From NCBI GenBank assembly GCA_016839555.1, contig JAEOUA010000003.1:224001-288000 (forward strand): a stretch of DNA of 64,000 bases, in the 5' to 3' direction. The notes under the pieces are model-generated. The model searched no databases and was not told where the DNA came from. It was given only the letters and a program-made list of their open reading frames with translations. Position 1 is the stretch's first letter, and every line of letters starts with the position of its first letter. This document shows, one piece after another, positions 1-13,168 of this stretch. The translations under genes were made by a program, and so were the position numbers. This DNA comes from Promethearchaeota archaeon. Its GTDB lineage: Archaea; Asgardarchaeota; Lokiarchaeia; Sigyniarchaeales; SOKP01.

Positions 1-158
1 ATCGTTGCCCATGGTCTATATACTAAAAATCCTTTTACATTATACCTTATATCTGCTAGGTCAGCTTTGTATAGAAGCTCTGAATACCAGCCAGAAAAAT
101 CCTCATCTTTCGAAATAGTGATACCAGTTTCCGGTATATTATTATCCTTTTTAGCCAT
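1..158 (-). CDS. proS: Prolyl-tRNA synthetase, N-terminal part (runs off the window start)
   Basis: Manual translation from ATG at 158: MAKKDNNIPETGITISKDEDFSGWYSELLYKADLADIRYNVKGFLVYRPWAT, matching the archaeal/eukaryotic ProRS N-terminus (FSxWY..A.L.D.RY.VKG..V.RP). Confidence 0.9.
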   Translation of the reverse strand, partial: MAKKDNNIPETGITISKDEDFSGWYSELLYKADLADIRYNVKGFLVYRPWAT

Positions 159-476
159 TATAATCCTCTTATTTAGAAGGATAATATTGTAAAAATTAAA
201 TATTTTTTTGGGAAAAACGCTTTTTTTATAGAAAACTTATTGAAATTTATTTTTTTCAGAATCAACAGTCTAAAATTTTAGAATTCTTTCATAAAACTGT
301 TAATTATAAGATTTTTAGAAATAAAATAAGAAATAATTTTTCTATTTATTTAGTTAAAGAATAAGATTTATATTTTTAAAGATTAAATATTTATATTGCT
401 AATTATCTCAAAATATAGCTTTATTATTTATTTTATACCTGAAAATCTTTATGCTATAATAAATTAAAAACCATTA

Positions 477-3458
477 ATGGAAAAAAATAAAATGAATGAA
501 TCAGAAATAAATGAAGAATTAGATCGATTTAAAGACTCCCTTTCTCTTTTAAATGTTGTTTTTAGTCGCAAGAGATTAAAGAAAGAAATATATAATGAAA
601 AAACGGGTTTTATTTTTAATGCTAAATATCAATTTTCTACGCGCGATGGAGGATTTAATTTTTATGTGGTATTTAATAATGGAGAAATTACTACTGGTGA
701 AGGCAAAATTGAAGACCCTAATATTACAATCTTTTACAAAGATAAAGCAACCTTAGCAGAAACCTGGAATAAAAGTGCAGATGAAACTCTTGAATATTTA
801 CTTGATAATTCCATGTCTTATAAAGGGAATATGTGCTATTTGACTAAATTTTCCTATCTTACTACAATCGCGACCGGAGCAAAAATAAAAGGATATAAGG
901 GTCCTGAAAATCAACTTATTTGTTCTATTGATGAGATATTAAAAGGAGAAGAAGGAAGAAAACTTCAAAATGAAAGTTTAAACCGAAAAATCGATAATGT
1001 AGAATTTTTAGAGGATCCATATTTATCAAAATATACAATTGATGATTTTCCGCGTTTAAAATATCTTAAAGCTCGCCGCAGAGCGATGAAGCCTGCTATA
1101 TGCGTTGAGAGAGCAAAACTATTAACGGAATATCATAGAAGAAACGGTTATGAAGTAGATAATGATGGGAATCCAATAGATCCTGAAATACGTCAGGCTA
1201 AAGCTGTTAATTATATTATAAGTAATAAAAAGCCAATTATTCATGACTATCATCTTGTAGCGGGTTCAACCACAACAAAAGAGGCAGGTATTCCTATGTA
1301 TCCTGAACTAATTGGTACTGCTGCATGGCCTGAATTACGGGCTATAGGAGATCGCAAGCTTAATCCTAATGATATTGATCCAAAAGATGCAGATATTCTA
1401 AGTCAAGAAATATTTCCATATTGGATGGAAAGAAATGTACGAGAGTATTGCCGGGCAAAATTTAATGATCCCGTTTCTCAATGGCTTGAGGAATGTTGGG
1501 TTTTCTATTTTATGATGAAAAATAATGCTATTTCACATACCGTTCCCGGATTTCCCATAATTCTTGAAAAGGGTTTAGAATCTATTAAAAATGAAGCCCT
1601 TGATAAGGAACAGGCAGCAGATTCATCGGAAGAAAAAAGGTTTTATAAAGCAGTTACAATTGCTATAGATGGTGCTATAGCTTATTCGAATCATTTGAGT
1701 GAGGAAGCCTTGAGATTAGCAGATTCATTAGATCCCGATGATCCTGAGCAAGCACAGCGAATTACGGAATTAAAGGAGCTTTCCCGGATCTGTGCAAAAG
1801 TTCCTGCAAAACCAGCAGACACCTTATATGAGGCGATTCAATCTATATGGACTAGTTTCGTATGTATCCATTGTGAAAATGCTAATTCTGCAATGTCAAT
1901 CGGGCGATTAGATCAGATGTTGCAACCGTTTTTTTTAAAAGAAATGAAAAAAGCCCAGAGTAAAGAAGAACAAGAAAAAATAATTGAAAAAGCAATTGAG
2001 CTCGTTGGATCTTTAATTTTGAGAATCAATGATCATGATCCTTTAGTGCCCTCCATAGGAAATAAATTATTTGGGGGGAGCTCTTCTGATGATACAGTTA
2101 CCGTAGGAGGCGTAGATAGAAATGGAAATGACGCCGTGTGCGATATGACATTTGTAATTTTAAAAACAAATGAAATGCTATGTTTTCAAGATCCAAATAT
2201 GAATGCCAGATATTATCCGGGAATTAATTCTGAAGAATATCTAAGACGTTTGGTTGAGGTTAATGTAAATATGATTTCTTCTCCCGCAATTCATAATGAT
2301 AAAACTATGATTGAGGCTCTGGTGAACGAGGGGTTTGCTATAGAGGATGCAAGAGATTGGGCTGCAACAGGTTGTGTAGAACCTACAGTAGTTGGTAAGC
2401 ATTATGGGCACACTAATTGTATGCTATTAAATTTGGTTGCACCACTAGAAATGGTATTAAATGATGGAGTCCATCCTTTAATTGGGGAACAAGTTGGTCC
2501 TAAAACTGGAATTCCTTCTTTAGAAAATTTTCCAACCTTTAATGATTTTTATAATGCATATAAAACTCATCTGGCATATCTAATTGAGAAGTCAATAGAA
2601 ATAAATAATTATTTGGGAATTAGTCATCAATATATCCACCCAACACCCTTTTTATCTGCTTTCTATGAAGGACCCTTAGATAAGGGAAAGGACTTAATTC
2701 ACGGCGGAGCGAAATATAATACATCAGGAGTAGCATTAGTAGCTTTAACGGATGTTGTTGATAGCCTGTTAGTCATAAGGGATTTAATCTATGATAAAAA
2801 AGAATTGGATTTTTCTACTCTACTCTATGCATTAGAAGATAATTTTGAAAATGGCTCGGCAGAATTATTGAATAAAATTGATAAAGTTAATAAATTTGGC
2901 TCTAATGAACCTGGAACTCAAGAAATTGCCGATGATTTGCTAGATTTTTGTTATAATGAATATAAAAAGACGAAAAATTATAGAGGCGGAGATTATCTTG
3001 TAGGATATTGGTCCATAAGTTATCATGTGGGGTATGGAATGCTTACAGGGGCATTGCCTTCAGGTAGAAAAGCGGGAGAATCCTTAACTCACGCACTAAC
3101 ACCGGCACCTGGAAGATCTGATCTATTGCTTCAAAACATCCACACCATAGCAAGCTTGGATCATCTAAAAATGCCCAATAATGCATCTTTTAATGTTAAA
3201 CTCGTCCCCAATGCTAACGATTCTCATCAGAAAACTTTAGACATTTTTACCGGTTATGTACAGAGTTTTTTTGATTTAGGAGGAATGTTGTGGCAATTTA
3301 ATATAGTAACCTCAGATACTTTAAGAGATGCAATGAAAAATCCTGATAATTATCGGTGGTTACTTGTTCGAGTGTCGGGTTATAATGCGTATTTTACAAA
3401 AATCAATAAAAATATGCAAATAGAAATAATAAAAAGAACAGAATTTCAGTCGAGATGA
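477..3458 (+). CDS. Glycyl radical enzyme (PFL2/eliminase-like) with N-terminal SCP2-like domain
   Basis: C-terminal RVSGY glycyl-radical motif; Cys loop ATGCVEP; SIGRLDQ; TVGG; first ~130 aa resemble SCP2 (VFNNGEITTGEGKIEDPNITI...LLDNSMSYKGNMCYLTKF). Confidence 0.9.
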   Translation: MEKNKMNESEINEELDRFKDSLSLLNVVFSRKRLKKEIYNEKTGFIFNAKYQFSTRDGGFNFYVVFNNGEITTGEGKIEDPNITIFYKDKATLAETWNKSADETLEYLLDNSMSYKGNMCYLTKFSYLTTIATGAKIKGYKGPENQLICSIDEILKGEEGRKLQNESLNRKIDNVEFLEDPYLSKYTIDDFPRLKYLKARRRAMKPAICVERAKLLTEYHRRNGYEVDNDGNPIDPEIRQAKAVNYIISNKKPIIHDYHLVAGSTTTKEAGIPMYPELIGTAAWPELRAIGDRKLNPNDIDPKDADILSQEIFPYWMERNVREYCRAKFNDPVSQWLEECWVFYFMMKNNAISHTVPGFPIILEKGLESIKNEALDKEQAADSSEEKRFYKAVTIAIDGAIAYSNHLSEEALRLADSLDPDDPEQAQRITELKELSRICAKVPAKPADTLYEAIQSIWTSFVCIHCENANSAMSIGRLDQMLQPFFLKEMKKAQSKEEQEKIIEKAIELVGSLILRINDHDPLVPSIGNKLFGGSSSDDTVTVGGVDRNGNDAVCDMTFVILKTNEMLCFQDPNMNARYYPGINSEEYLRRLVEVNVNMISSPAIHNDKTMIEALVNEGFAIEDARDWAATGCVEPTVVGKHYGHTNCMLLNLVAPLEMVLNDGVHPLIGEQVGPKTGIPSLENFPTFNDFYNAYKTHLAYLIEKSIEINNYLGISHQYIHPTPFLSAFYEGPLDKGKDLIHGGAKYNTSGVALVALTDVVDSLLVIRDLIYDKKELDFSTLLYALEDNFENGSAELLNKIDKVNKFGSNEPGTQEIADDLLDFCYNEYKKTKNYRGGDYLVGYWSISYHVGYGMLTGALPSGRKAGESLTHALTPAPGRSDLLLQNIHTIASLDHLKMPNNASFNVKLVPNANDSHQKTLDIFTGYVQSFFDLGGMLWQFNIVTSDTLRDAMKNPDNYRWLLVRVSGYNAYFTKINKNMQIEIIKRTEFQSR

Positions 3459-3537
3459 TTGTTTCATTAAAATATAAATCTGAAATAAAATAATCTAAAT
3501 TTTTATTATAATATTTAATTTTTTATCTTTTTTTATT

Positions 3538-4431
3538 ATGAATACACTTATTATCGATATTAAGAGAAATGCATTAGACGATGGTCCTGGAATAAGAACA
3601 CTTATTTTCTTTAAAGGATGCCCATTATCTTGTGTATGGTGCCAAAATCCAGAAGCAAAATCATCAGAGCAAGAAATTTCTTTCGAAAATGAACTATGTA
3701 GTTTTTGCGGAAAATGTGCGGAAGTATGTGAGACTAATGCGATTAATTTGGATTATAAATATAGAATAAATAGAGAAGTATGTAATTTATGTGGAAAATG
3801 TGTCAATATATGTCCCAATCACGCATATGAACTTGTAGGAAAATTTTACGAAATAGATGAGTTAGTTGATATTATTCTTAAAGATAAAATTTTTTTTAAG
3901 AATTCAGGTGGAGGAATCACTCTATCGGGAGGAGAACCTACTTTACACATGAATTATATGAATAAATTATTAAAAAAATTAAAAAAACAAGAAATTCATG
4001 TTTGTTTAGAAACATGCGGATATTTTAATCTTTCAAATTTCACAGAAATGATACTGCCATATCTTGATTTAATCTATTTTGATCTTAAGCTTTATGATCC
4101 GGCATTACATAAAAAATATTGTGGCGTTTCCAACGAGATAATTCTTCAAAATTTTAAATATTTGATTAATGAAGCAAAAGTTGAAATATTACCTCGTATT
4201 CCACTAATTCCAAATATTACAACCGATGAAAATAATTTAAAGAGTTTCGCTCAATTTTTAAAGTCGAATAATATAAATAAAGTTCATCTTCTTCCTTATA
4301 ATCCTTTATGGCTCTCTAAACCCGAGAAAATTGGAGTCAAACTGGAATATGATTACTCAGAAATGCTTAAAAGCGATCAAAAAGAACAAATTAAAACCTT
4401 ATTTTCAGATTTTGAATATAATCAATTTTAA
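3538..4431 (+). CDS. Glycyl-radical enzyme activating enzyme (radical SAM) with 2x[4Fe-4S] ferredoxin insert
   Basis: DGPGIRT, FFKGCPLSCVWCQNPE, CSFCGKCAEVC and CNLCGKCVNICP, GGITLSGGEP; directly follows the GRE. Confidence 0.95.
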   Translation: MNTLIIDIKRNALDDGPGIRTLIFFKGCPLSCVWCQNPEAKSSEQEISFENELCSFCGKCAEVCETNAINLDYKYRINREVCNLCGKCVNICPNHAYELVGKFYEIDELVDIILKDKIFFKNSGGGITLSGGEPTLHMNYMNKLLKKLKKQEIHVCLETCGYFNLSNFTEMILPYLDLIYFDLKLYDPALHKKYCGVSNEIILQNFKYLINEAKVEILPRIPLIPNITTDENNLKSFAQFLKSNNINKVHLLPYNPLWLSKPEKIGVKLEYDYSEMLKSDQKEQIKTLFSDFEYNQF

Positions 4432-4502
4432 GATAGCTCATTTTTAATAGGAAAAATCTCTAATTATATTTTAATAAATTATCAAAAATGAGTTGAAAGT
4501 CT

Positions 4503-5354
4503 TTGAATAATAATTTTGAAACAATTAAATTTGAATTACAAGATAATGGAATTGGTATTTTAACTCTTAATAGACCAGAGAAATTAAATGCGATTTCTTT
4601 TCAAATGGAGGAGGAGCTTCATAATATATTAGATGAGTTATCTACTAATTTAGATTGTAGAGTATTAATTCTAAGAGCAGAGGGAAGAATTTTTAGTGCA
4701 GGTACAGATCTTCAAGAAGGTCTAATATTGAATTCAAAAAAGAGTCCTGAAGGCTATGAAAAATTTTATTATTTAGAAGTTCCAGAGCCATTAAAAAGAA
4801 AAATCTATCATCAATGGAGAATAACCCAATTGATTGTGAAACTTCGAGAGATTCATCAACCTATAATTGCATTAATTCAAGGATCTGCTGTCGGAGGAGG
4901 ATTCGGATTTTTATTAGCGTCTGATATTAGAATTGCAGCGTCTAACGCAAAATTCATTATTGCATCAATTAATATTGGTTTAACAGGAGCCGATACGGGT
5001 TCGAGCTATTTTTTACCTCGTCTCATAGGAATGTCTAAAGCAGCGGAAATTATGTATACAGGTAAATCAGTTGATGCAGGTGAAGCACTAAAAATTGGTT
5101 TAATTTCAAAGATAGTTCCTAATGAAAAGCTTTTAGATTCTGGAATTGAATTAGCAGAAGAAATGTTAACAAAGAGCCCTTTAGGGTTAAGATTAACAAA
5201 AAAAGCAATAAATTTATCACTAGATTCACCATCTCTTAATACCATTATTCAATTCGAAAATAGTTCAATTGTTTTGGCGTTCTCATCTAAAGATGTGGGA
5301 GAGGCATCAGCTGCATTTTTTGGAAAGCGAAAACCGAATTATCCTTTGAAATGA
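4503..5354 (+). CDS. Enoyl-CoA hydratase/isomerase (crotonase) family protein
   Basis: LNRPEKLNA, FSAGTDL, AVGGGFG, SDIRIA, GSSYFLPRLIG; TTG start. Confidence 0.93.
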   Translation: MNNNFETIKFELQDNGIGILTLNRPEKLNAISFQMEEELHNILDELSTNLDCRVLILRAEGRIFSAGTDLQEGLILNSKKSPEGYEKFYYLEVPEPLKRKIYHQWRITQLIVKLREIHQPIIALIQGSAVGGGFGFLLASDIRIAASNAKFIIASINIGLTGADTGSSYFLPRLIGMSKAAEIMYTGKSVDAGEALKIGLISKIVPNEKLLDSGIELAEEMLTKSPLGLRLTKKAINLSLDSPSLNTIIQFENSSIVLAFSSKDVGEASAAFFGKRKPNYPLK

Positions 5355-5414
5355 TTTAAATCCAAAATTGATTTTTTTCTAGAATATCAAAATTCAATTC
5401 TTTTATTTTTCTTT

Positions 5415-6182
5415 TTAATATTGAGAAGTATCTTCAAATTCATGTAATTTAGCATTGGTGATTATAGAATTAGATTTTATTATTGCCTCGTAATCTTTTG
5501 ATTCTAAATATTTCTTAATCGTTTGAGTAATTTTTTCTAATTTTATACTATAATCATTATCATTTATTTCATAAATAATAACAGTGTTAGCGTCTTTTAT
5601 ATCTGATTTCAATTTTAACTCTTCATCAATTTTTTGGAAAGTAATTTTAGAAGCTCCATTTAAAATCCCAATTTTCTTTATTTCTTCTTCTAAACCACCA
5701 AAGGTAAAATAATTTCTCTCTTTTAACTGTAATTTAGAGGCGAGTATTCTTTCTAAATTATCTCTTGATTTTTTATCATAAAAGCTTGTAAGTTCTCTGG
5801 ATACAATTTCTTTATACTTATTTTTTATCAAATAATCTTTTTTTTCAATGAAATCTATTAAGGATTCATAATATCTATCGTCGATATTTTTGAAATTTTC
5901 AACATTTCGCACGAAATCTGTTAAATTATGTAATAAATCATAATAGAATTTCATGGTGGATTTAATTTCCAATTTCTCATTTAAAGCTTTTATTTCAGGA
6001 TAATATTTTTTTAAAATTAGATTAATTTTTTTATTTAATGCTGCTAAAACTTGAGCAATTTCATTAACTTTACTGAATGATTTATATCGAATTAATTCTA
6101 ATAATTTTGTATCACTTTCAATTAGCTCATCAAAAATTTCAGTTATTTTTTGAAAATATTTTTTCTCAATATACGACATCAA
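5415..6182 (-). CDS. Hypothetical protein (helical, charged)
   Basis: 255-aa ORF with typical composition; no recognised motif. Confidence 0.7.
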   Translation of the reverse strand: MMSYIEKKYFQKITEIFDELIESDTKLLELIRYKSFSKVNEIAQVLAALNKKINLILKKYYPEIKALNEKLEIKSTMKFYYDLLHNLTDFVRNVENFKNIDDRYYESLIDFIEKKDYLIKNKYKEIVSRELTSFYDKKSRDNLERILASKLQLKERNYFTFGGLEEEIKKIGILNGASKITFQKIDEELKLKSDIKDANTVIIYEINDNDYSIKLEKITQTIKKYLESKDYEAIIKSNSIITNAKLHEFEDTSQY

Positions 6183-6307
6183 TAATATAATAAAACTAAA
6201 TGTTTTTATTCTTATCGCTCATAATTTATTCTTTTTATTTAAATTTCTAAAAAGATTATATTAGATTTATTTCCAATTTAAAAGAGATTAGAAAAAAATA
6301 TTATTTA

Positions 6308-7033
6308 TTATAAATTTAAGGTCTTTTTAGTATCTTTCTTCAATGTTAGAATAGAGAATACAATCCCCCATAAATCTATAATAAAAAATGCTATCCATTC
6401 CCATACGAGACCAGGGATAATATTCTCTCTACAAAATCCAGGGAGTAAATTTAGAAGACTAGTACCAGCTGACAGATCTTGATTTAAAAAAATAAAAATA
6501 ATAATAGATACTATAAAGCCAAAAGATGCACTCCATTTTGGAAGTTTCTGCCGGTCTTTAGTTTTATCCTGCACTAAAATTGCAATACTAAATATTGCTG
6601 GTGTTATCAATGCTAGTATGAAAAAGGTTCTTGCAATATGAAAATGTGGAATTCTTTTTGTATCTGCAGGATTAAATCCTATAAGGATAAGAGTTATTGA
6701 CCAAAGCAAACCCAATATCATCCCGATTTTTGCTATTGGCGCTGAGTATTTACCTTCAAGGTAGAGTGAAAAACCTAGAAGAAAGAAGAAATTTAAAACT
6801 CCACTAATTATTATAAATAGATTAAATAATAACCAACTCCAATTCCCCGACGTAGCCATACCTAGCTCAGATACTGCATGATTGTACCATATATAATCGC
6901 AGCCCAACAAATCCTTTGCTCCAATCATACAAATTAAGGGTCCTAAGAATAAAAATCCACCTATTCCAATTAAACCCCATATACCTATAGATATTTTATC
7001 ATAAAATTTATCTATGAGTTCTCTAACTTTCAT
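6308..7033 (-). CDS. DUF998-like membrane protein
   Basis: About six TM segments; HAVSELG motif after TM1; conserved H in IPHFHIA. Confidence 0.7.
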   Translation of the reverse strand: MKVRELIDKFYDKISIGIWGLIGIGGFLFLGPLICMIGAKDLLGCDYIWYNHAVSELGMATSGNWSWLLFNLFIIISGVLNFFFLLGFSLYLEGKYSAPIAKIGMILGLLWSITLILIGFNPADTKRIPHFHIARTFFILALITPAIFSIAILVQDKTKDRQKLPKWSASFGFIVSIIIFIFLNQDLSAGTSLLNLLPGFCRENIIPGLVWEWIAFFIIDLWGIVFSILTLKKDTKKTLNL

Positions 7034-7207
7034 TATTTCATCATTATATTATTCCTTATACTAGCTATTAAATTATTTAATTTATTTAATTTTATTAGAA
7101 ATATTAAGGTTAAAGATTTAATAGGTTTTAAGCTATGTTTAAAGAAGAAAATAATTTCTCGGATTCTTAAATAATGATTTAAAAAAAATTAGATACGATT
7201 GTATATA

Positions 7208-8365
7208 TTATGGTGAAATCAATTTTCCAATAAAAATGATAGTTTTTGTTTGAGAGTCTACTATCAAAAATATAAATGCATGATCAGCTTTGAAAATAGG
7301 AATCTTTCGCTGAGGAAGAGGGCCCTTTCCACGTTTTGTTATCATAGTCACAGCAGCAGCTTCAGTACCCTTTTCATTTACATCAACAAAGGCTTTATGA
7401 AGAATTTCACCAATATTTAGAAATAAATTTTTAGAGATATCTATAATTCCCGAAAAATCTGCGACTGTTGTAAATGGAAGAGTAAGACCTAATTTTTTCA
7501 AATCCTTTTTAAGCTCATATTTAGTCTCCATTTTAAATTTAGGAATATAAATGTCTACTTCTTGTTTATATAATTGCTCTAAATGAGTAAATAAAAAATC
7601 TACTGATATTTTTTTTTCCAAATTTTTTAGTCTATATTTATCAGTAGGGAGAAATATAAACATAGAGTATCTTTCAATTTTCCCATATCTCTGATTACCC
7701 TTATAAGGCAATTCAAGTATTTGAAGATCTTTATTCTCAAAATAAGGAAATACATTAATTTGATGCATTAATAAAACAGGTGCAATCTCCCTGTTTTGAA
7801 GATAAAAATTTGTTTCTTGAGTCAAATTTTTATTAAAGCTAATATCCCATATCCCCTTAAAATAAATTACGTTTAGTAAAATTAATTTAATGGTTGGATC
7901 AAATTTTTGGGGTGAAATTATAGTTTTAATTTTGTTATATGTGTTTTTTTTTACCCATATATTGATTTTATTGCAAGTGTTCTCAATATTTTCAAAATTT
8001 TCTTTATAGAATGCACCATTGTAATTCTCTTCCATTAGATAGAGGAATGATTCAAGAATTTCATAATTATTATCTGCCCAAATAGAGTTAGCAATAGTAA
8101 CTTCAATATTTTTAATTTTTAAAAGTTTATCTACCAATTCTCTAATTTTAATAGGCACTTTTGTCTTATTGAGTGTTATATGAAGCCTATTCTTTAATTG
8201 TTCTTCTGTTTCATTTTTTGCTCCCATAAATATCATAGTTAGCGCTGTGAATATGCTTAAAGGTGAAATAAATAAGTTTTGATCAGTTTCTTTCAATTGA
8301 ATATATAAATCGATTGCAAACGCATTAATAGAATTAGAAATAGAAAATTGTCCAATACTTGACAT
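7208..8365 (-). CDS. Serpin (inhibitory-type hinge), no signal peptide
   Basis: NLFISPLSI, NVIYFKGIW, LELPY, IPKFK, VNEKGTEAAA, FKADHAFIFLI. Confidence 0.95.
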   Translation of the reverse strand: MSSIGQFSISNSINAFAIDLYIQLKETDQNLFISPLSIFTALTMIFMGAKNETEEQLKNRLHITLNKTKVPIKIRELVDKLLKIKNIEVTIANSIWADNNYEILESFLYLMEENYNGAFYKENFENIENTCNKINIWVKKNTYNKIKTIISPQKFDPTIKLILLNVIYFKGIWDISFNKNLTQETNFYLQNREIAPVLLMHQINVFPYFENKDLQILELPYKGNQRYGKIERYSMFIFLPTDKYRLKNLEKKISVDFLFTHLEQLYKQEVDIYIPKFKMETKYELKKDLKKLGLTLPFTTVADFSGIIDISKNLFLNIGEILHKAFVDVNEKGTEAAAVTMITKRGKGPLPQRKIPIFKADHAFIFLIVDSQTKTIIFIGKLISP

Positions 8366-8609
8366 CTTTTTATTAATTCCTTTAATAGATTCTGGAATCT
8401 TTATAAAAATATTTTTTTAAATTTTTTAATAACTTTATATATATTAAAGATTTTGGTTTTTTGGCTATGTTATTAAAAAATGTGCTTATAATATTAACTG
8501 CAAATTTATTGTTCTCGATTCTTTTAAAATATATTAATTAAAAAATTTCGATCAGAATTTAGTAATTAGGTTAATTACAATCTCATATAACTTATTGATT
8601 AATTATAAA

Positions 8610-9548
8610 TTATATTTTATTTTCAATATCTTTTATTCTTGACCTTAAAGTGACTTCTGTAATTTTAGCAGTCTCGCTGATTTCCGTTTGGGTTTTATGA
8701 TCTTTGGTTTTTTTAGCGGCCATATAAATAGCACTTCCTGCTAATCCTTTTGGATCTTTTCCGGATCTGAATAATCCATTTCTAGAAGCTTTTATTAAGA
8801 TATGGAGTGCCTTTTTCTGTGTTTTCATTGATAATCCTAAATCATTGCAAAACTTGAATATAAGATGTTCTGCTCTAATTGGATTATATTTCAATCCCAT
8901 AACAGGGAGGATCTCCCTAACTATTAAACCTAAGGATTTATGCACTGTCCTTCTAGGGGTCATAGAAATTTCGCATACTTCTTCAAGCAAGCGAGGAAAT
9001 TCATGAATCCTGATAGCAGAATATAATGCTGCGCAAACAAATCCTTCTATTGAGCGTCCCATAGTTAGTCTTTTTTTTGCCACCATCGTGTAGATTTTCC
9101 ATGCTGTTTCTTTAATATATTCTGGGATATTCATTTTCGAACAAAGAATTTTTAATTTTGGTTTTGCTTCCCAGAAATTTCTTTCAATGCTAGAAACCAA
9201 AGAATTTTGAATCTTAGATAGCCGTGAAAATAAAGTCTTTCCTCTAGCACCAATTAATTTTCCATTAGAATCTTTTTTACTATTAGAGAGCATGGTTCTT
9301 GGTCCAAATTCTCTCCAACGTGGCTCTGTTCTACGCCTCTTCTCAATTTCTTCCATTGAATACGCTCTTCGCTCATTTTCAACCAGATTTTCTCCTATAA
9401 CAATACCACAGTTAATACAAACTATCTCTCCCCCCTTTTGTTTAAAAGAAGGATTGTTACAACATTTGGTTAATTCACTTCTCTCGTTATTTTTATTTAA
9501 AGATTCTTCATCTTCAACTCTTAAACGATCTCTATAGTTATATAACAA
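8610..9548 (-). CDS. tfb: Transcription initiation factor IIB (TFB) paralog
   Basis: Zn ribbon CC..GEIVCINCG, two cyclin repeats (GRSIEG, PRLLEE, GKDPKGLAG, ITEVTLRSR); TTG start. Confidence 0.92.
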   Translation of the reverse strand: MLYNYRDRLRVEDEESLNKNNERSELTKCCNNPSFKQKGGEIVCINCGIVIGENLVENERRAYSMEEIEKRRRTEPRWREFGPRTMLSNSKKDSNGKLIGARGKTLFSRLSKIQNSLVSSIERNFWEAKPKLKILCSKMNIPEYIKETAWKIYTMVAKKRLTMGRSIEGFVCAALYSAIRIHEFPRLLEEVCEISMTPRRTVHKSLGLIVREILPVMGLKYNPIRAEHLIFKFCNDLGLSMKTQKKALHILIKASRNGLFRSGKDPKGLAGSAIYMAAKKTKDHKTQTEISETAKITEVTLRSRIKDIENKI

Positions 9549-10133
9549 TTTTATGCCCCCTCTTTATAGATGCTAGCTTTTTCTATTAATTTTTAAAGAA
9601 TCATAATGAAAATAATGGATTCAATAATTTTATAAATTTAATTATTAATAATTTCAAATTTGCTTTAAATGAAAAAACCTATCATATATTTTTCATTTTA
9701 CGTCAATTTTTTAAATTATCACATTATTTAGCAATATAGGATTTGAGGTTGGTATTCACTTGAATGATTTTATTAAAAATTCAGTATATAAAATTATATA
9801 TGTGATCAATTTTATTTTCGTTAATCTTAAATGAGAATAGCATAATTATAAAACTTACTATTTATAAAGAACAATATAAGAAAATTATATTAAAAAAAGA
9901 GCTTAATGCTTCGATTTCGGATAAAATATAGGATAGGTTTGGAAATAATTCCACAATTTCTCTCGCTTATAACGTGTTTCACTTTTTTTTTTTTGCATTA
10001 TTAATTCTTCTGGCTTATAATTAAGATATAAAAATATAAAATCGATAAATTGATATAAAATCTATATTTTTTTCGTTTTTAATATTTATTTTAAGATGCT
10101 ATAAATAAGAAATAAGATATTAAGTTGCTTTCT

Positions 10134-11426
10134 CTAACTTTTATTGTTCATTAAAGGTAAAATTTGGGGTCCATTAGGCAATATTAATATTCTAGACTCT
10201 CCACCATGCTTTTTTAAACCTCTCAAAATCGCTTCTTCTACTGTTTTTGAATGTTTCAGACCAATATTCCCAAGTTCTCTTTTTTTAAGTTTAGAAATTA
10301 CATAAATTTCAGCTTTCATTAATATTCGTGCCAATATTTGAATCTCCCATTGGTCTGGCACATTAATCTCATTTTTTAAGATTTTTTTATGGATTTCTGC
10401 TGGTGAGAGAGACAAATTTATCAAATCTTTGAATTTTTCATGTCCGCTGCCTATGCCATCCGAACATTCATTTACTGATATTATTGTACCTCCATTCTTG
10501 ACGGCCATCTCTCCTATAGCCATACTCTTTACGGCTTGATATAGATTCAAATCCAAGGGATACCCTCCGTTCCCACATATAACAATATCATATGGTTTAT
10601 CAATTTTTTTAAAGACTTTTTTTAATTGGAAATTAACAAGATGTTTATGTGTCTCCTCTAAATTTCCAGCAGTAACTTTATTTATTTCATGGTTTTGATT
10701 AATGCAAACGTTTACAATAAAATCAACACCCACTTTTTTAGTAATTTCTATTGAATTTTTATGGATTGGATTATCCTCAAAAATTCCAAATCTTGCAAAT
10801 GGTGAAGCAATATTTTTTGCAGAATGATTGCCTTTTATGGTTTCATAGCCTGCAATTCCGGGGATTACTGATTTCCTACCTCCTGAGAATCCTGCAAAAA
10901 AGTGGGGTTCAACATAACCCGTGAGTATTTTTAAGTTTGCTGTATAGTAGTGTTTATTAATCCATATTGGAACTTCATCGCTATCAACCCCTAAATTTAT
11001 TAAATCATCTCTATTTGTAGCAATATGTCCAAATACTTCAATTCTTTTCCTAATTTCTTGACTTATAATTCTTTGCAATTCAGGTTCTCTACAAGAGCGA
11101 TGTAGTCCAGTAGCAATTAAAATGAGGATTTGATTATCACTGATTCCGTTTTCATTCAATTCTTTTATGAGAGCTTGAAGGATGAGGTGTGAAGGCACAG
11201 GCCTAGTTGCATCGGAAACAACAATACAGACTTTATTAATTGGTTTTTTTTGGTGAATAATATCTCTTAATACTGGTGACCCAATAGGATTATTAATTGC
11301 ATTTCTAATGGCTTTAATTGGTTCATGGATAGCTTCCTGATGTTTGGGATAAAAAATATCAACCTTCCAATCTGGCTGAAGTGAGATATCCAAGCCATTT
11401 TTACCATAATCGATTTTAACGTTCAG
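10134..11426 (-). CDS. larA: Nickel-pincer-dependent lactate racemase family protein (LarA homolog)
   Basis: SDATRP, ATGLHR, EPHFFAGFSGGRKS, NHS, LYQAVK. Frame extends past the track start (11393) as LNVKIDYGKNGL to a CTG at 11426. Confidence 0.88.
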   Translation of the reverse strand: MNVKIDYGKNGLDISLQPDWKVDIFYPKHQEAIHEPIKAIRNAINNPIGSPVLRDIIHQKKPINKVCIVVSDATRPVPSHLILQALIKELNENGISDNQILILIATGLHRSCREPELQRIISQEIRKRIEVFGHIATNRDDLINLGVDSDEVPIWINKHYYTANLKILTGYVEPHFFAGFSGGRKSVIPGIAGYETIKGNHSAKNIASPFARFGIFEDNPIHKNSIEITKKVGVDFIVNVCINQNHEINKVTAGNLEETHKHLVNFQLKKVFKKIDKPYDIVICGNGGYPLDLNLYQAVKSMAIGEMAVKNGGTIISVNECSDGIGSGHEKFKDLINLSLSPAEIHKKILKNEINVPDQWEIQILARILMKAEIYVISKLKKRELGNIGLKHSKTVEEAILRGLKKHGGESRILILPNGPQILPLMNNKS

Positions 11427-13168
11427 AATTCTCTCCTCTTATGAAGAATTTCTCTGGCTTTTTCAAATATATAGCAAGTATCAACACCAGAGGGACATAA
11501 TTCTTTACATAATCCACATAAAGTACATGCATGAAATATATCATTAATTAATCTATTTGGTTTTAAATCACCATAAACCAAACCGTTTAAGATGCTTAAA
11601 CGGCCCCTTGGGCTATATGCTTCAATAAAATAATTCATTCGAGACGGGCATAAATTTATACAGAACCCGCATCTCATACATCGTAATTCTAAAATTTTAT
11701 CTTCTTGATTTTTTAATTTTCTGGAGATTTTTATCGAGCTTAATTTTCTCTGATCCCCTTTCCCAATACCTGGATTTAGAATTTGATGTGGATCGAATAA
11801 TTTTTTAATATTATTCATTAAATCAACCACTTCAGAGCCATGCTCTAATTCAAGATAAGGAGTTTTAATTTTTCCAATTCCATGTTCACCCGTTAAAGTT
11901 CCCCCAGAAGGAATTATGATCTTTTTATAGAGAAAATCTATTGCTTTTTTAAAATCTTCTACATCTTCTGGGTTATTTTCATTAAACATAAATGTGGGAT
12001 GTAGATTTCCTTCCATATGACAGATCGTAGCAACTATTAAATTTTTAGCCCCAATTTTTTTTGGGAGGTCTTCTATTTTTTTTATAATACTATCAAATTG
12101 CGTTATTTTTATGGTACAATCTTCAACGCAAGTGGTGGGCATTAATCGTGATAATGCTGGAAGATTTGCCTTCCTTGCTAAAATCAATCTTTCTCTCTCC
12201 TTTTCATTGCTCGCAATTCTATGCAATATAGGATTATTAGTCATTATTTTCTCAAACATAAGATTAAAATCATTTTCTACTTCATCTTCAGAGTTTCCAT
12301 CGACTTCAGCAAGTAAAACATATCCATTCGGAAATTCCAAAAATTCTCCTCCTAAATAGTCTGTCACCGCTTTTAAAATCACTTTATCCATAAATTCAAG
12401 TAGATTAGGAACTATTCTTGTTGATCTTAGCTCAATAGCAGCATTTTTTAACTTTTTAATATCATCAAAAATAAAGAGTGCTAACTTTCGAAATTTGGGA
12501 TATGGTCTAATTCTTAAGCCAATTTTGGTTATAACACCGAGTGTTCCCTCAGAACCAATTATTAAATCTTTTAAATTATATGATGAGACAGATTTTAACA
12601 CGTCGGTGCCCAGATGAAGTATTTTACCATTGGGTAATACAATATCAAGAAAAAGGACATAATTCTTAGTAACACCATATTTAAAAGCTTGAATACCGCC
12701 TGCATTATTCGCAACCATACCGCCGAGGGTGGCTACTGAACTAGAGCCTGGGTCAGGCGGAAAAAAATATCCCAATTTTTTTAATTTATCATTCAAATCA
12801 TCGCATATAACCCCAGGTTGGACTACTACTAGATTATTTTCTATATCAATTTTTAGTATTTTATTCATTTTAGTTAAGTCTAACACAATTCCCCCAAATG
12901 GTGTCATTGGACCTCCAGATAAACTTGTACCATTCCCTCGTGGGATAATTGTAATCAATTCTTTATCTGCAAGTATTAATATCTCAGAAATCTGATTATC
13001 TGTTTCAGGCGTGAGGATTAAATCGGGAATCCAATCTCGTTCAAATAAAGTTCCTCCAAATGCATATGTCCATCTTATTTCGAATTCATCATAGAAATTA
13101 GTTTCTCCCACAATTTGTTTAAATTCTTCTTTTAAATCAGGGTTGAGTTCTGAATAACCATGGCTCAT
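11423..13168 (-). CDS. FAD-linked oxidase (GlcD/D-2-hydroxyacid dehydrogenase-like) fused to a C-terminal 2x[4Fe-4S] domain
   Basis: PRGNGTSLSGG, FPPDPGS, GSEGTLG, GNLH, GEHGIG, NPG; CMRCGFCINLCP and CTLCGLCKELCP. Confidence 0.9.
   Translation of the reverse strand: MSHGYSELNPDLKEEFKQIVGETNFYDEFEIRWTYAFGGTLFERDWIPDLILTPETDNQISEILILADKELITIIPRGNGTSLSGGPMTPFGGIVLDLTKMNKILKIDIENNLVVVQPGVICDDLNDKLKKLGYFFPPDPGSSSVATLGGMVANNAGGIQAFKYGVTKNYVLFLDIVLPNGKILHLGTDVLKSVSSYNLKDLIIGSEGTLGVITKIGLRIRPYPKFRKLALFIFDDIKKLKNAAIELRSTRIVPNLLEFMDKVILKAVTDYLGGEFLEFPNGYVLLAEVDGNSEDEVENDFNLMFEKIMTNNPILHRIASNEKERERLILARKANLPALSRLMPTTCVEDCTIKITQFDSIIKKIEDLPKKIGAKNLIVATICHMEGNLHPTFMFNENNPEDVEDFKKAIDFLYKKIIIPSGGTLTGEHGIGKIKTPYLELEHGSEVVDLMNNIKKLFDPHQILNPGIGKGDQRKLSSIKISRKLKNQEDKILELRCMRCGFCINLCPSRMNYFIEAYSPRGRLSILNGLVYGDLKPNRLINDIFHACTLCGLCKELCPSGVDTCYIFEKAREILHKRREF

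Follow-up and report, generated by a model that had tools for sequence, protein, structure and literature searches.

An SCP2-fused glycyl radical enzyme of Asgard archaea and Desulfobacterota that probably converts a lipid-like alcohol to an aldehyde

We analyzed a window of 64,000 nucleotides (the whole stretch of DNA presented above) from the genome of a Promethearchaeota archaeon, and focused on a unit of three genes encoding a glycyl radical enzyme (GRE) fused to an N-terminal SCP2-fold domain, its activating enzyme (activase) and a crotonase-superfamily protein (Table 1). We propose that this enzyme, hereafter SCP2-GRE, is a CXE-type radical eliminase or lyase working on the polar head of an amphiphilic substrate, whose tail would be held by the docked SCP2 domain, and that its product is an aldehyde. 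We give this reading a probability of roughly 55%. In other words, the enzyme probably cleaves a greasy, alcohol-like molecule to yield an aldehyde, a reaction so far not known within the GRE class. What is new in this otherwise known class is the accessory module, together with the probable type of substrate: we found no description of the SCP2-GRE architecture, or of a lipid-acting or lipid-cleaving GRE, in the open-access literature searched, and a preprint on Asgard microcompartments has GREs in its reference list only. The characterized PFL-like GREs are all bacterial, whole clades are without validation, and the archaeal GREs are uncharacterized according to a 2026 review (PMC13450708).

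The N-terminal domain is strongly conserved across an alignment of 26 homologues. Searches of the PDB by sequence alone, with the single sequence and with a profile, returned matches at chance level, and the SCP2 fold had therefore to be shown by modeling. The AlphaFold2 model of the N-terminus is confident over residues 10-130, with a predicted local distance difference test score (pLDDT) of about 85-94 over residues 10-100. When it was compared with the PDB using Foldseek, the top 44 matches were all SCP2-fold proteins (best E-value 1.8e-6, probability 1.0), including AF1534, UbiJ-SCP2, the SCP2-like domains of alkylsulfatases, and human SCP2. VIA-align, which is independent of Foldseek and was run against 48,161 chains, also gave SCP2-fold chains in its top ten positions. 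The best was human SCP2 (Z 11.3, root-mean-square deviation 2.6 Å over 111 residues), nine had a Z of at least 9.0 and the tenth had 5.9, while the first chain of another fold had 5.4. The N-termini of more distant relatives exceed the Pfam SCP2 (PF02036) cut-off of 21.3 bits unaided, with 35, 31, and 21.7 bits. Hence, the SCP2-like domain that the original prediction had proposed to check with AlphaFold and Foldseek is upheld by two independent structure searches, and the model confirms that residues about 8-135 adopt the SCP2 fold. For the linker that follows the domain, the pLDDT is low in the model of the N-terminal piece by itself, while modeling the full-length protein gives 69-81 for residues 131-170 and 93-96 for residues 171-190.

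The models further support docking of the SCP2 domain on the catalytic core. In a complex test of residues 1-140 against residues 190-993, the score was 0.91 and the best of three controls scored 0.01. A mark of 0.91 is reached by 58 of 80 solved complexes and by 2 of 110 mismatched pairs, rates that hold roughly here as we used our own alignment. The runs agreed in at least 95% of the contacts, with a partner pLDDT of at least 84. No solved SCP2-GRE complex from which the model might have drawn is known to us, but no search for one was made. On the SCP2 side, the interface residues are more conserved than the remainder of the domain (0.76 vs 0.60, permutation p 0.0008); on the core side, there was no significant difference in conservation between the interface and the rest. 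The core-side interface comprises residue 221, the helices 281-289 and 309-326, and the helix 526-531. The latter leads straight into the active-site loop GGSSSDD, in which Asp538 is the residue aligned with glycerol dehydratase Tyr339. The conserved substrate channel of GREs involves a cap helix between beta2 and beta3, the loop after beta1, and the helix alpha8' (PMC13450708). Judging from the order of the secondary-structure elements in the model, helix 526-532 would be this channel cap helix.

The association between domain and core is also visible in a split form. At one locus (L067), a 41%-identical GRE devoid of SCP2 domain is followed by a separate 154-amino-acid gene homologous to the domain (hhalign 97.5%, E-value 5e-12), and then by the activase. 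This suggests that the SCP2 module behaves like an obligate partner, be it fused or separately encoded. In this respect it is comparable to the small subunits of other GREs (BSS beta/gamma, MASS beta/gamma/delta, HPAD gamma), which are accessory modules bound to the catalytic subunit. Yet these are HiPIP-like or rubredoxin-like iron-sulfur (FeS) proteins, and small FeS proteins are the sole accessory subunits known for GREs (PMC13450708), whereas the SCP2 module is devoid of Cys clusters and has the fold of a lipid carrier. SCP2-fold domains attached to, or working with, enzymes that handle hydrophobic chains are found in the SdsA1/Pisa1 alkylsulfatases, MFE-2, and UbiJ, all among the top structural matches of our model. 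The catalytic domains of these systems are unrelated to that of the GRE, and the SCP2 domain is C-terminal in SdsA1 and MFE-2 but N-terminal in SCP2-GRE.

The catalytic core is that of a PFL-like enzyme. Residues 193-974 match the Pfam families PFL-like (PF02901, E-value 2e-158) and Gly_radical (PF01228, E-value 2e-19), and the protein has the features that define the superfamily: the barrel, the C-terminal Gly_radical domain with its RVxG motif, and a nearby radical SAM activase. The loop of the catalytic Cys reads TGCVEP, with a single Cys, and the adjacent Cys-Cys pair of pyruvate formate-lyase (PFL) is not present. The 993-residue GRE with a single-Cys GCVE loop and an RVSGY motif that had been read from the letters is thus recovered in the translation and by Pfam. 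The protein nevertheless scores below every NCBIfam equivalog cut-off, and below the cut-off of the PFL2-3 subfamily. The models for CutC, HypD, HpfG/HpsG, PflD, indoleacetate and HPA decarboxylase, and PFL gave 124-400 bits for cut-offs of 994-1150 (e.g., 400 vs 1050 for CutC and 400 vs 1100 for HypD), and TIGR01774 gave 538 bits for a cut-off of 678. The closest solved relatives by sequence are the PFL2 of Archaeoglobus fulgidus (380 bits) and glycerol dehydratase (359 bits), followed by HpyG, HypD, propanediol dehydratase, and CutC at about 330-338 bits (332 for propanediol dehydratase), and by the weaker MasD (197), TutD (172), and PFL (107). With scores this far below the cut-offs and a distinct invariant signature (see below), the core falls outside the characterized GRE subfamilies, as had been anticipated.

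To describe the active site, we mapped the sequence on the B12-independent glycerol dehydratase of Clostridium butyricum (1R8W/1R9D). This enzyme and the GRE propanediol dehydratase (5I2A) have in common with SCP2-GRE a PFL2-type core, the CXE motif, the equivalent of His164, the glycyl motif, and an activase with a ferredoxin insert; an aldehyde product is probable here too. They differ from it by about 190 extra N-terminal residues with the SCP2 domain in SCP2-GRE and by four changes in the pocket. Cys433, Glu435, and His164 of glycerol dehydratase are kept, while Ser282, Tyr339, Asp447, and Tyr640, which we take to be its glycerol-binding pocket residues, are replaced by Ala472, Asp538, Asn647, and Trp845, such that the glycerol pocket is not retained. 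In glycerol dehydratase, Glu435 deprotonates the C1 hydroxyl and His164 protonates the departing hydroxyl (PMC13450708). The CXE motif is retained by all characterized GRE eliminases and isomerases, and is hence not exclusive to eliminases (PMC13450708). Still, the motif together with the His164 equivalent, both invariant in 57 of 57 sequences, points to eliminase chemistry, which the CxE loop had first been taken to signal.

Two other comparisons are informative. The PFL2/PflD of A. fulgidus (2F3O), the best solved match, is archaeal like SCP2-GRE and has a single Cys with CVE and an Ala at the position of Ser282. It differs by the absence of the SCP2 domain and by keeping the equivalents of Asp447 and Tyr640, and its function is still debated (PMC13450708). 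YbiW and PflD of Escherichia coli, which are 1,5-anhydro-hexitol-6-phosphate C-O lyases, are CXE GREs with 270-316 bits to our protein. They use the CXE motif to cleave the ring ether C-O bond beside the carbinol carbon (PMC13450708), and thereby provide a chemical precedent for the loss of an alkoxide. However, they lack an SCP2 domain and act on soluble sugar phosphates.

The active-site signature is conserved throughout the family. Among 57 full-length Asgard and bacterial relatives, His354, Asp538, Cys633, Glu635, His645, Thr646, Asn647, and Trp845 are invariant, Ser471 and Ala472 are kept in 56, and so is Gly968, the remaining sequence being gapped at that position. This makes a single, family-wide substrate likely. 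When a library was clustered at 50% identity, we found the exact signature only in the SCP2-GRE family. Around it lies a broader uncharacterized clade marked by [HM]T[GN] and [YF]W, whose members have the SCP2 domain fused, have it encoded by an adjacent gene, or lack it. Among the SCP2-fused paralogues, a few are without the catalytic Cys or Gly. Four GRE paralogues (P0132, P0137, P0146, and P0154; 984-1007 amino acids) are extended by about 190-200 residues at the N-terminus and no longer have the catalytic Cys; P0137 is also without the radical Gly. P0132 and P0154 align with our protein through the SCP2 region, and the N-terminus of P0146 has a weak match to Pfam SCP2. These may be relatives that bind lipids but have no catalytic activity.

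The fusion recurs in more than 120 proteins of 983-1003 amino acids and 59-84% identity, which answers the original question of its recurrence in other genomes. The proteins come from metagenome-assembled genomes (MAGs) of Promethearchaeota/Loki-, Thor-, Hermod-, Hod-, Jord-, and Freyarchaeal lineages, and from Desulfatibacillum. A scan of species-representative genomes returned 66 loci, which include Desulfobacterales, Desulfosudaceae, and Desulfatibacillum alkenivorans DSM 16219. Hence, the family is not Asgard-specific but shared with Desulfobacterota. In a FastTree phylogeny rooted on relatives devoid of SCP2 domain, all Asgard sequences form one clade nested in a grade of Desulfobacterota. 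This tentatively suggests a single transfer from Desulfobacterota to Asgard archaea. The 3.74-Mb genome from which the window was taken carries five GREs (open frames of 799-996 amino acids) and ten aldehyde:ferredoxin oxidoreductases (AORs), both unusually large numbers.

We then turned to the gene neighborhoods. Neighbors were counted within four genes of SCP2-GRE in 46 Asgard and 18 bacterial loci (64 in total), with our own calling of open reading frames (ORFs) and single-linkage clustering; as many contigs are short, all linkage counts are lower bounds. The activase was found in 31 of the 46 Asgard and 6 of the 18 bacterial loci. The commonest partner after it, and the most informative one, is an AOR (24 of 64 loci: 20 Asgard, 4 bacterial), an indirect indication of an aldehyde product. 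The AORs of the two groups share about 33% identity, while the values within groups are mostly 55-86% (Asgard) and 65-67% (bacterial). This suggests independent recruitment in each domain of life and thus a functional coupling to an aldehyde product. A crotonase-fold gene is present in 4 Asgard and 10 bacterial loci, and a long FadE-like acyl-CoA dehydrogenase in no Asgard and 4 bacterial loci. Bacterial loci add a FadD-like ligase, the FadE-like dehydrogenase, and TetR regulators. One example, locus L057, has on one strand a second GRE, an AMP-binding ligase, a crotonase, an AOR, a long acyl-CoA dehydrogenase, and SCP2-GRE. The best NCBIfam matches of its ligase are all long-chain fatty-acid-CoA ligases, and the best match of the acyl-CoA dehydrogenase, a weak one, is acryloyl-CoA reductase. 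This locus (L057:1198-13641) lies in a Desulfobacterales MAG; its second GRE has 831 amino acids and no SCP2 domain, and an unknown 209-residue protein (cluster c35) follows SCP2-GRE. A c35 homologue at another Desulfobacterales locus (L040) is 61% identical to a protein encoded in the genome of the window, at C1:332541-333152.

Some neighbors were set aside. In about 19 Asgard loci (e.g., L012:6928-9722), a FAD oxidoreductase resembling CrtI and carotenoid isomerases and a PaaE-like FNR/2Fe-2S reductase stand divergently upstream. This pair was rejected as a core part, since our genome has it on a different contig (C3, about 75-78 kb) and no bacterial locus contains it, and we regard it as lineage synteny. 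The HEAT, HD, beta-helix, M23, Y-family polymerase, and 5'-nucleotidase ORFs that adjoin the GRE in bacterial loci were annotated and are unrelated. No genes for small Cys-rich FeS subunits recur in the loci.

The two genes that follow SCP2-GRE in the window were the ferredoxin-insert activase and the crotonase-family gene expected from the sequence, co-directional with it. The activase passes the cut-off of TIGR02494 (299 vs 174 bits) and has the CX3CX2C motif, the Radical_SAM domain, and two Fer4 motifs, i.e., a two-cluster ferredoxin insert. The crotonase matches ECH_1 (E-value 3e-52) and scores under all NCBIfam cut-offs. When aligned to 5zai, it has GGGFG for GGGLE and IASIN for LPEIN, and the catalytic glutamates are replaced by Gly and Ser. 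Hence, the crotonase fold of a canonical enoyl-CoA hydratase is present, but its two catalytic glutamates are not. This GAD-type crotonase adjoins the GRE in 3 Asgard loci (counting the window) and 7 bacterial loci, the bacterial copies being 38-43% identical to that of the window. The proposed linkage between crotonase and GRE therefore stands as far as its recurrence is concerned, though only in a minority of the loci counted above. The further proposal of an enoyl-CoA hydratase feeding beta-oxidation is no safe reading: the subtype has neither of the hydratase glutamates, and searches by BLAST with this genome's own enzymes found a 3-hydroxyacyl-CoA dehydrogenase in none of the 66 loci and a thiolase in one. 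The cluster is thus not a beta-oxidation operon. The genome has beta-oxidation genes elsewhere.

What follows is inferred, from the type of reaction and the lipid-like substrate to the order of the pathway. The activase would install a radical on Gly968, from where it would pass to Cys633, and the thiyl radical of Cys633 would abstract hydrogen at the substrate's carbinol carbon. Glu635 would deprotonate the carbinol hydroxyl and His354 would protonate the leaving group (OH, OR, or amine) on the neighboring carbon, such that the elimination yields an aldehyde. The SCP2 domain would meanwhile retain the hydrophobic tail and let the polar head enter the active site. The adjacent AOR of relatives would oxidize the aldehyde; at the bacterial loci, the resulting acid may then be activated by the FadD-like ligase and processed by the FadE-like dehydrogenase and the unusual crotonase.

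Several observations weigh against this proposal. The N-terminus of the window's own enzyme matches Pfam SCP2 weakly (13.7 bits, E-value 0.08, under the cut-off passed by its distant relatives), and the linkage counts come in large part from short contigs. No AOR adjoins the operon in the window, and none of the ten AORs of the genome is close to the GRE-linked ones, with 35-37% identity to the five compared (those at most three genes from an SCP2-GRE). Finally, the family-specific invariant residues of the pocket (Asp538, Asn647, His645, and Thr646) are largely polar, which indicates that the reacting group is polar and makes a small polar substrate possible.

This last point leads to the alternative that survives best, and which we still regard as unlikely: the SCP2 module may be a structural or regulatory accessory, i.e., a channel gate like BSS-beta, a stabilizer of the radical domain, or a membrane tether, and the substrate may be small and polar (a diol, an amino alcohol, or an anhydro-sugar, for instance). 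Beyond the polar pocket, it would agree with the known accessory subunits of GREs, which serve stability or channel access and not the carriage of substrate (PMC13450708), and with most Asgard loci having an AOR, an enzyme that accepts many aldehydes, as the sole catabolic neighbor. But the solved SCP2-enzyme fusions recovered by Foldseek (SdsA1 alkylsulfatase, MFE-2, and UbiJ) act on hydrophobic substrates, and the long-chain-type acyl-CoA ligase, FadE-like dehydrogenase, and TetR regulators of bacterial loci argue in the same direction.

SCP2 proteins bind fatty acyl-CoAs. One might thus have expected an acyl-CoA thioester as substrate, for instance a hydroxyacyl-CoA held in the SCP2 domain, with the crotonase acting directly on the product of the GRE; the crotonase-fold gene found after the activase here, and recurring in 14 loci, would suit this option. 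We consider it improbable, since the commonest partner, AOR, points to a free aldehyde, the CoA ligase of L057 places the attachment of CoA later than the GRE reaction, and, by our own reading of PMC13450708, no characterized CXE-type GRE uses a CoA ester. Least probable is an alkyl- or benzylsuccinate synthase activating hydrocarbons by fumarate addition, as single-Cys Asgard GREs were annotated in a Hermodarchaeota study from BLAST and similarity to A. fulgidus PflD (PMC8163825): a domain for hydrophobic ligands and the presence of the family in the alkane- and alkene-degrading Desulfatibacillum would fit, but the scores of MasD and TutD (197 and 172 bits) are well below the 330-380 bits of eliminases, the CXE and His features of eliminases and isomerases are retained, the linkage to AOR has no place in fumarate addition, and the small FeS subunits of all characterized X-succinate synthases (PMC13450708) are not encoded.

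A more specific route can also be outlined, which is speculative and which we hold to be rather unlikely as a whole: SCP2-GRE might catalyze the first step in the anaerobic breakdown of glycerol ether lipids, be they alkylglycerols of bacteria or archaeol-type lipids of archaea. In the glycerol head, the group adjoining the free carbinol (hydroxyl or alkoxide) would be removed by the GRE, with a 3-alkoxypropanal as product (and, from diethers, a free alcohol). AOR would turn the aldehyde into a 3-alkoxypropionate, which the ligase would convert to its CoA ester. From this ester, the glutamate-less crotonase would release the second alcohol by beta-elimination, and the resulting acryloyl-CoA would be reduced by the enzyme resembling acyl-CoA dehydrogenases. 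Such a route fits the gene set and would have its chemical precedent in YbiW and PflD. It would account for the absence of hydroxyacyl-CoA dehydrogenase from the loci, the thiolase in only one of them, and the weak match to acryloyl-CoA reductase. It would also account for the changed pocket residues, which presumably sit around the third carbon in the glycerol dehydratase structure, and for the occurrence of the family in Desulfatibacillum and in sediment Asgard archaea. Desulfatibacillum makes alkylglycerol ethers.

The unit itself is compact. The start of the GRE may alternatively be Met6, at position 492, where an identical database protein of 988 amino acids begins. There are no small Cys-rich ORFs within or between the GRE, activase, and crotonase genes, in line with the earlier statement that no small subunits of the BssB/C type are encoded. 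Upstream, on the opposite strand, are ProRS and other unrelated genes. Downstream, also on the opposite strand and unrelated, are genes for an unknown 255-residue protein, a DUF998 protein, a serpin, and TFB. The three genes thus form a self-contained unit. The serpin gene of this Asgard archaeal genome is full-length (7208-8365, minus strand; Pfam Serpin, E-value 2e-100) and adjoins the TFIIB/TFB gene (8610-9548). Further on (10134-13168, minus strand), a LarA-type lactate racemase gene lies beside that of a FAD-linked oxidase with a 4Fe-4S dicluster domain, resembling D-lactate dehydrogenase. Ten loci, the window included, have homologues of this oxidase (cluster c9), and a DUF1848 gene (c8) likewise recurs in 10; both are downstream of the GRE in the loci listed. 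Their recurrence indicates that part of the GRE neighborhood is syntenic. The G+C content over positions 1-12000 is very low (25-36%), the GRE gene being the most G+C-rich stretch there.

Table 1. Features of the SCP2-GRE unit, in positions of the window
Feature	Position	Strand	Evidence
SCP2-fused glycyl radical enzyme (GRE), 993 amino acids	477..3458	+	ORF translation; Pfam PFL-like and Gly_radical
SCP2-fold domain, about residues 8-135	498..881	+	AlphaFold2 model, Foldseek, VIA-align; weak Pfam SCP2 match
Conserved linker, residues 136-192; C-terminal part bears LEDPYL...DFPRLKYLK motif	882..1052	+	homologue alignment
GRE catalytic core, residues 193-991, 10-stranded barrel of PFL2/eliminase type	1053..3449	+	Pfam, NCBIfam, PDB sequence matches 2f3o, 1r8w, 8id1, 6vxc
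His354, equivalent of glycerol dehydratase His164 (proposed leaving-group acid)	1536..1538	+	alignment to 1r8w; invariant 57/57
Cys loop G632-C633-V634-E635 (CXE motif)	2370..2381	+	translation, alignment
Glycyl radical motif R965-V-S-G968-Y969	3369..3383	+	translation, Pfam
GRE-activating radical SAM enzyme, 297 amino acids	3538..4431	+	TIGR02494, Radical_SAM, Fer4
Crotonase-superfamily protein, 'GAD' subtype, 283 amino acids, TTG start	4503..5354	+	ECH_1; alignment to 5zai

SCP2-GRE would add a new type of accessory module to the GREs, a lipid carrier that is fused or separately encoded, and it is probably the first GRE acting on a lipid-like substrate. Our proposal would assign a function to one of the commonest GREs of Asgard archaea, so far labeled as alkyl- or benzylsuccinate synthases by BLAST alone. 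Desulfatibacillum is a cultivable genus, and the orthologue of D. alkenivorans makes the question directly testable. If the substrate is indeed an ether lipid or a long-chain diol, the enzyme would explain how recalcitrant lipids can be turned over anaerobically in sediments.

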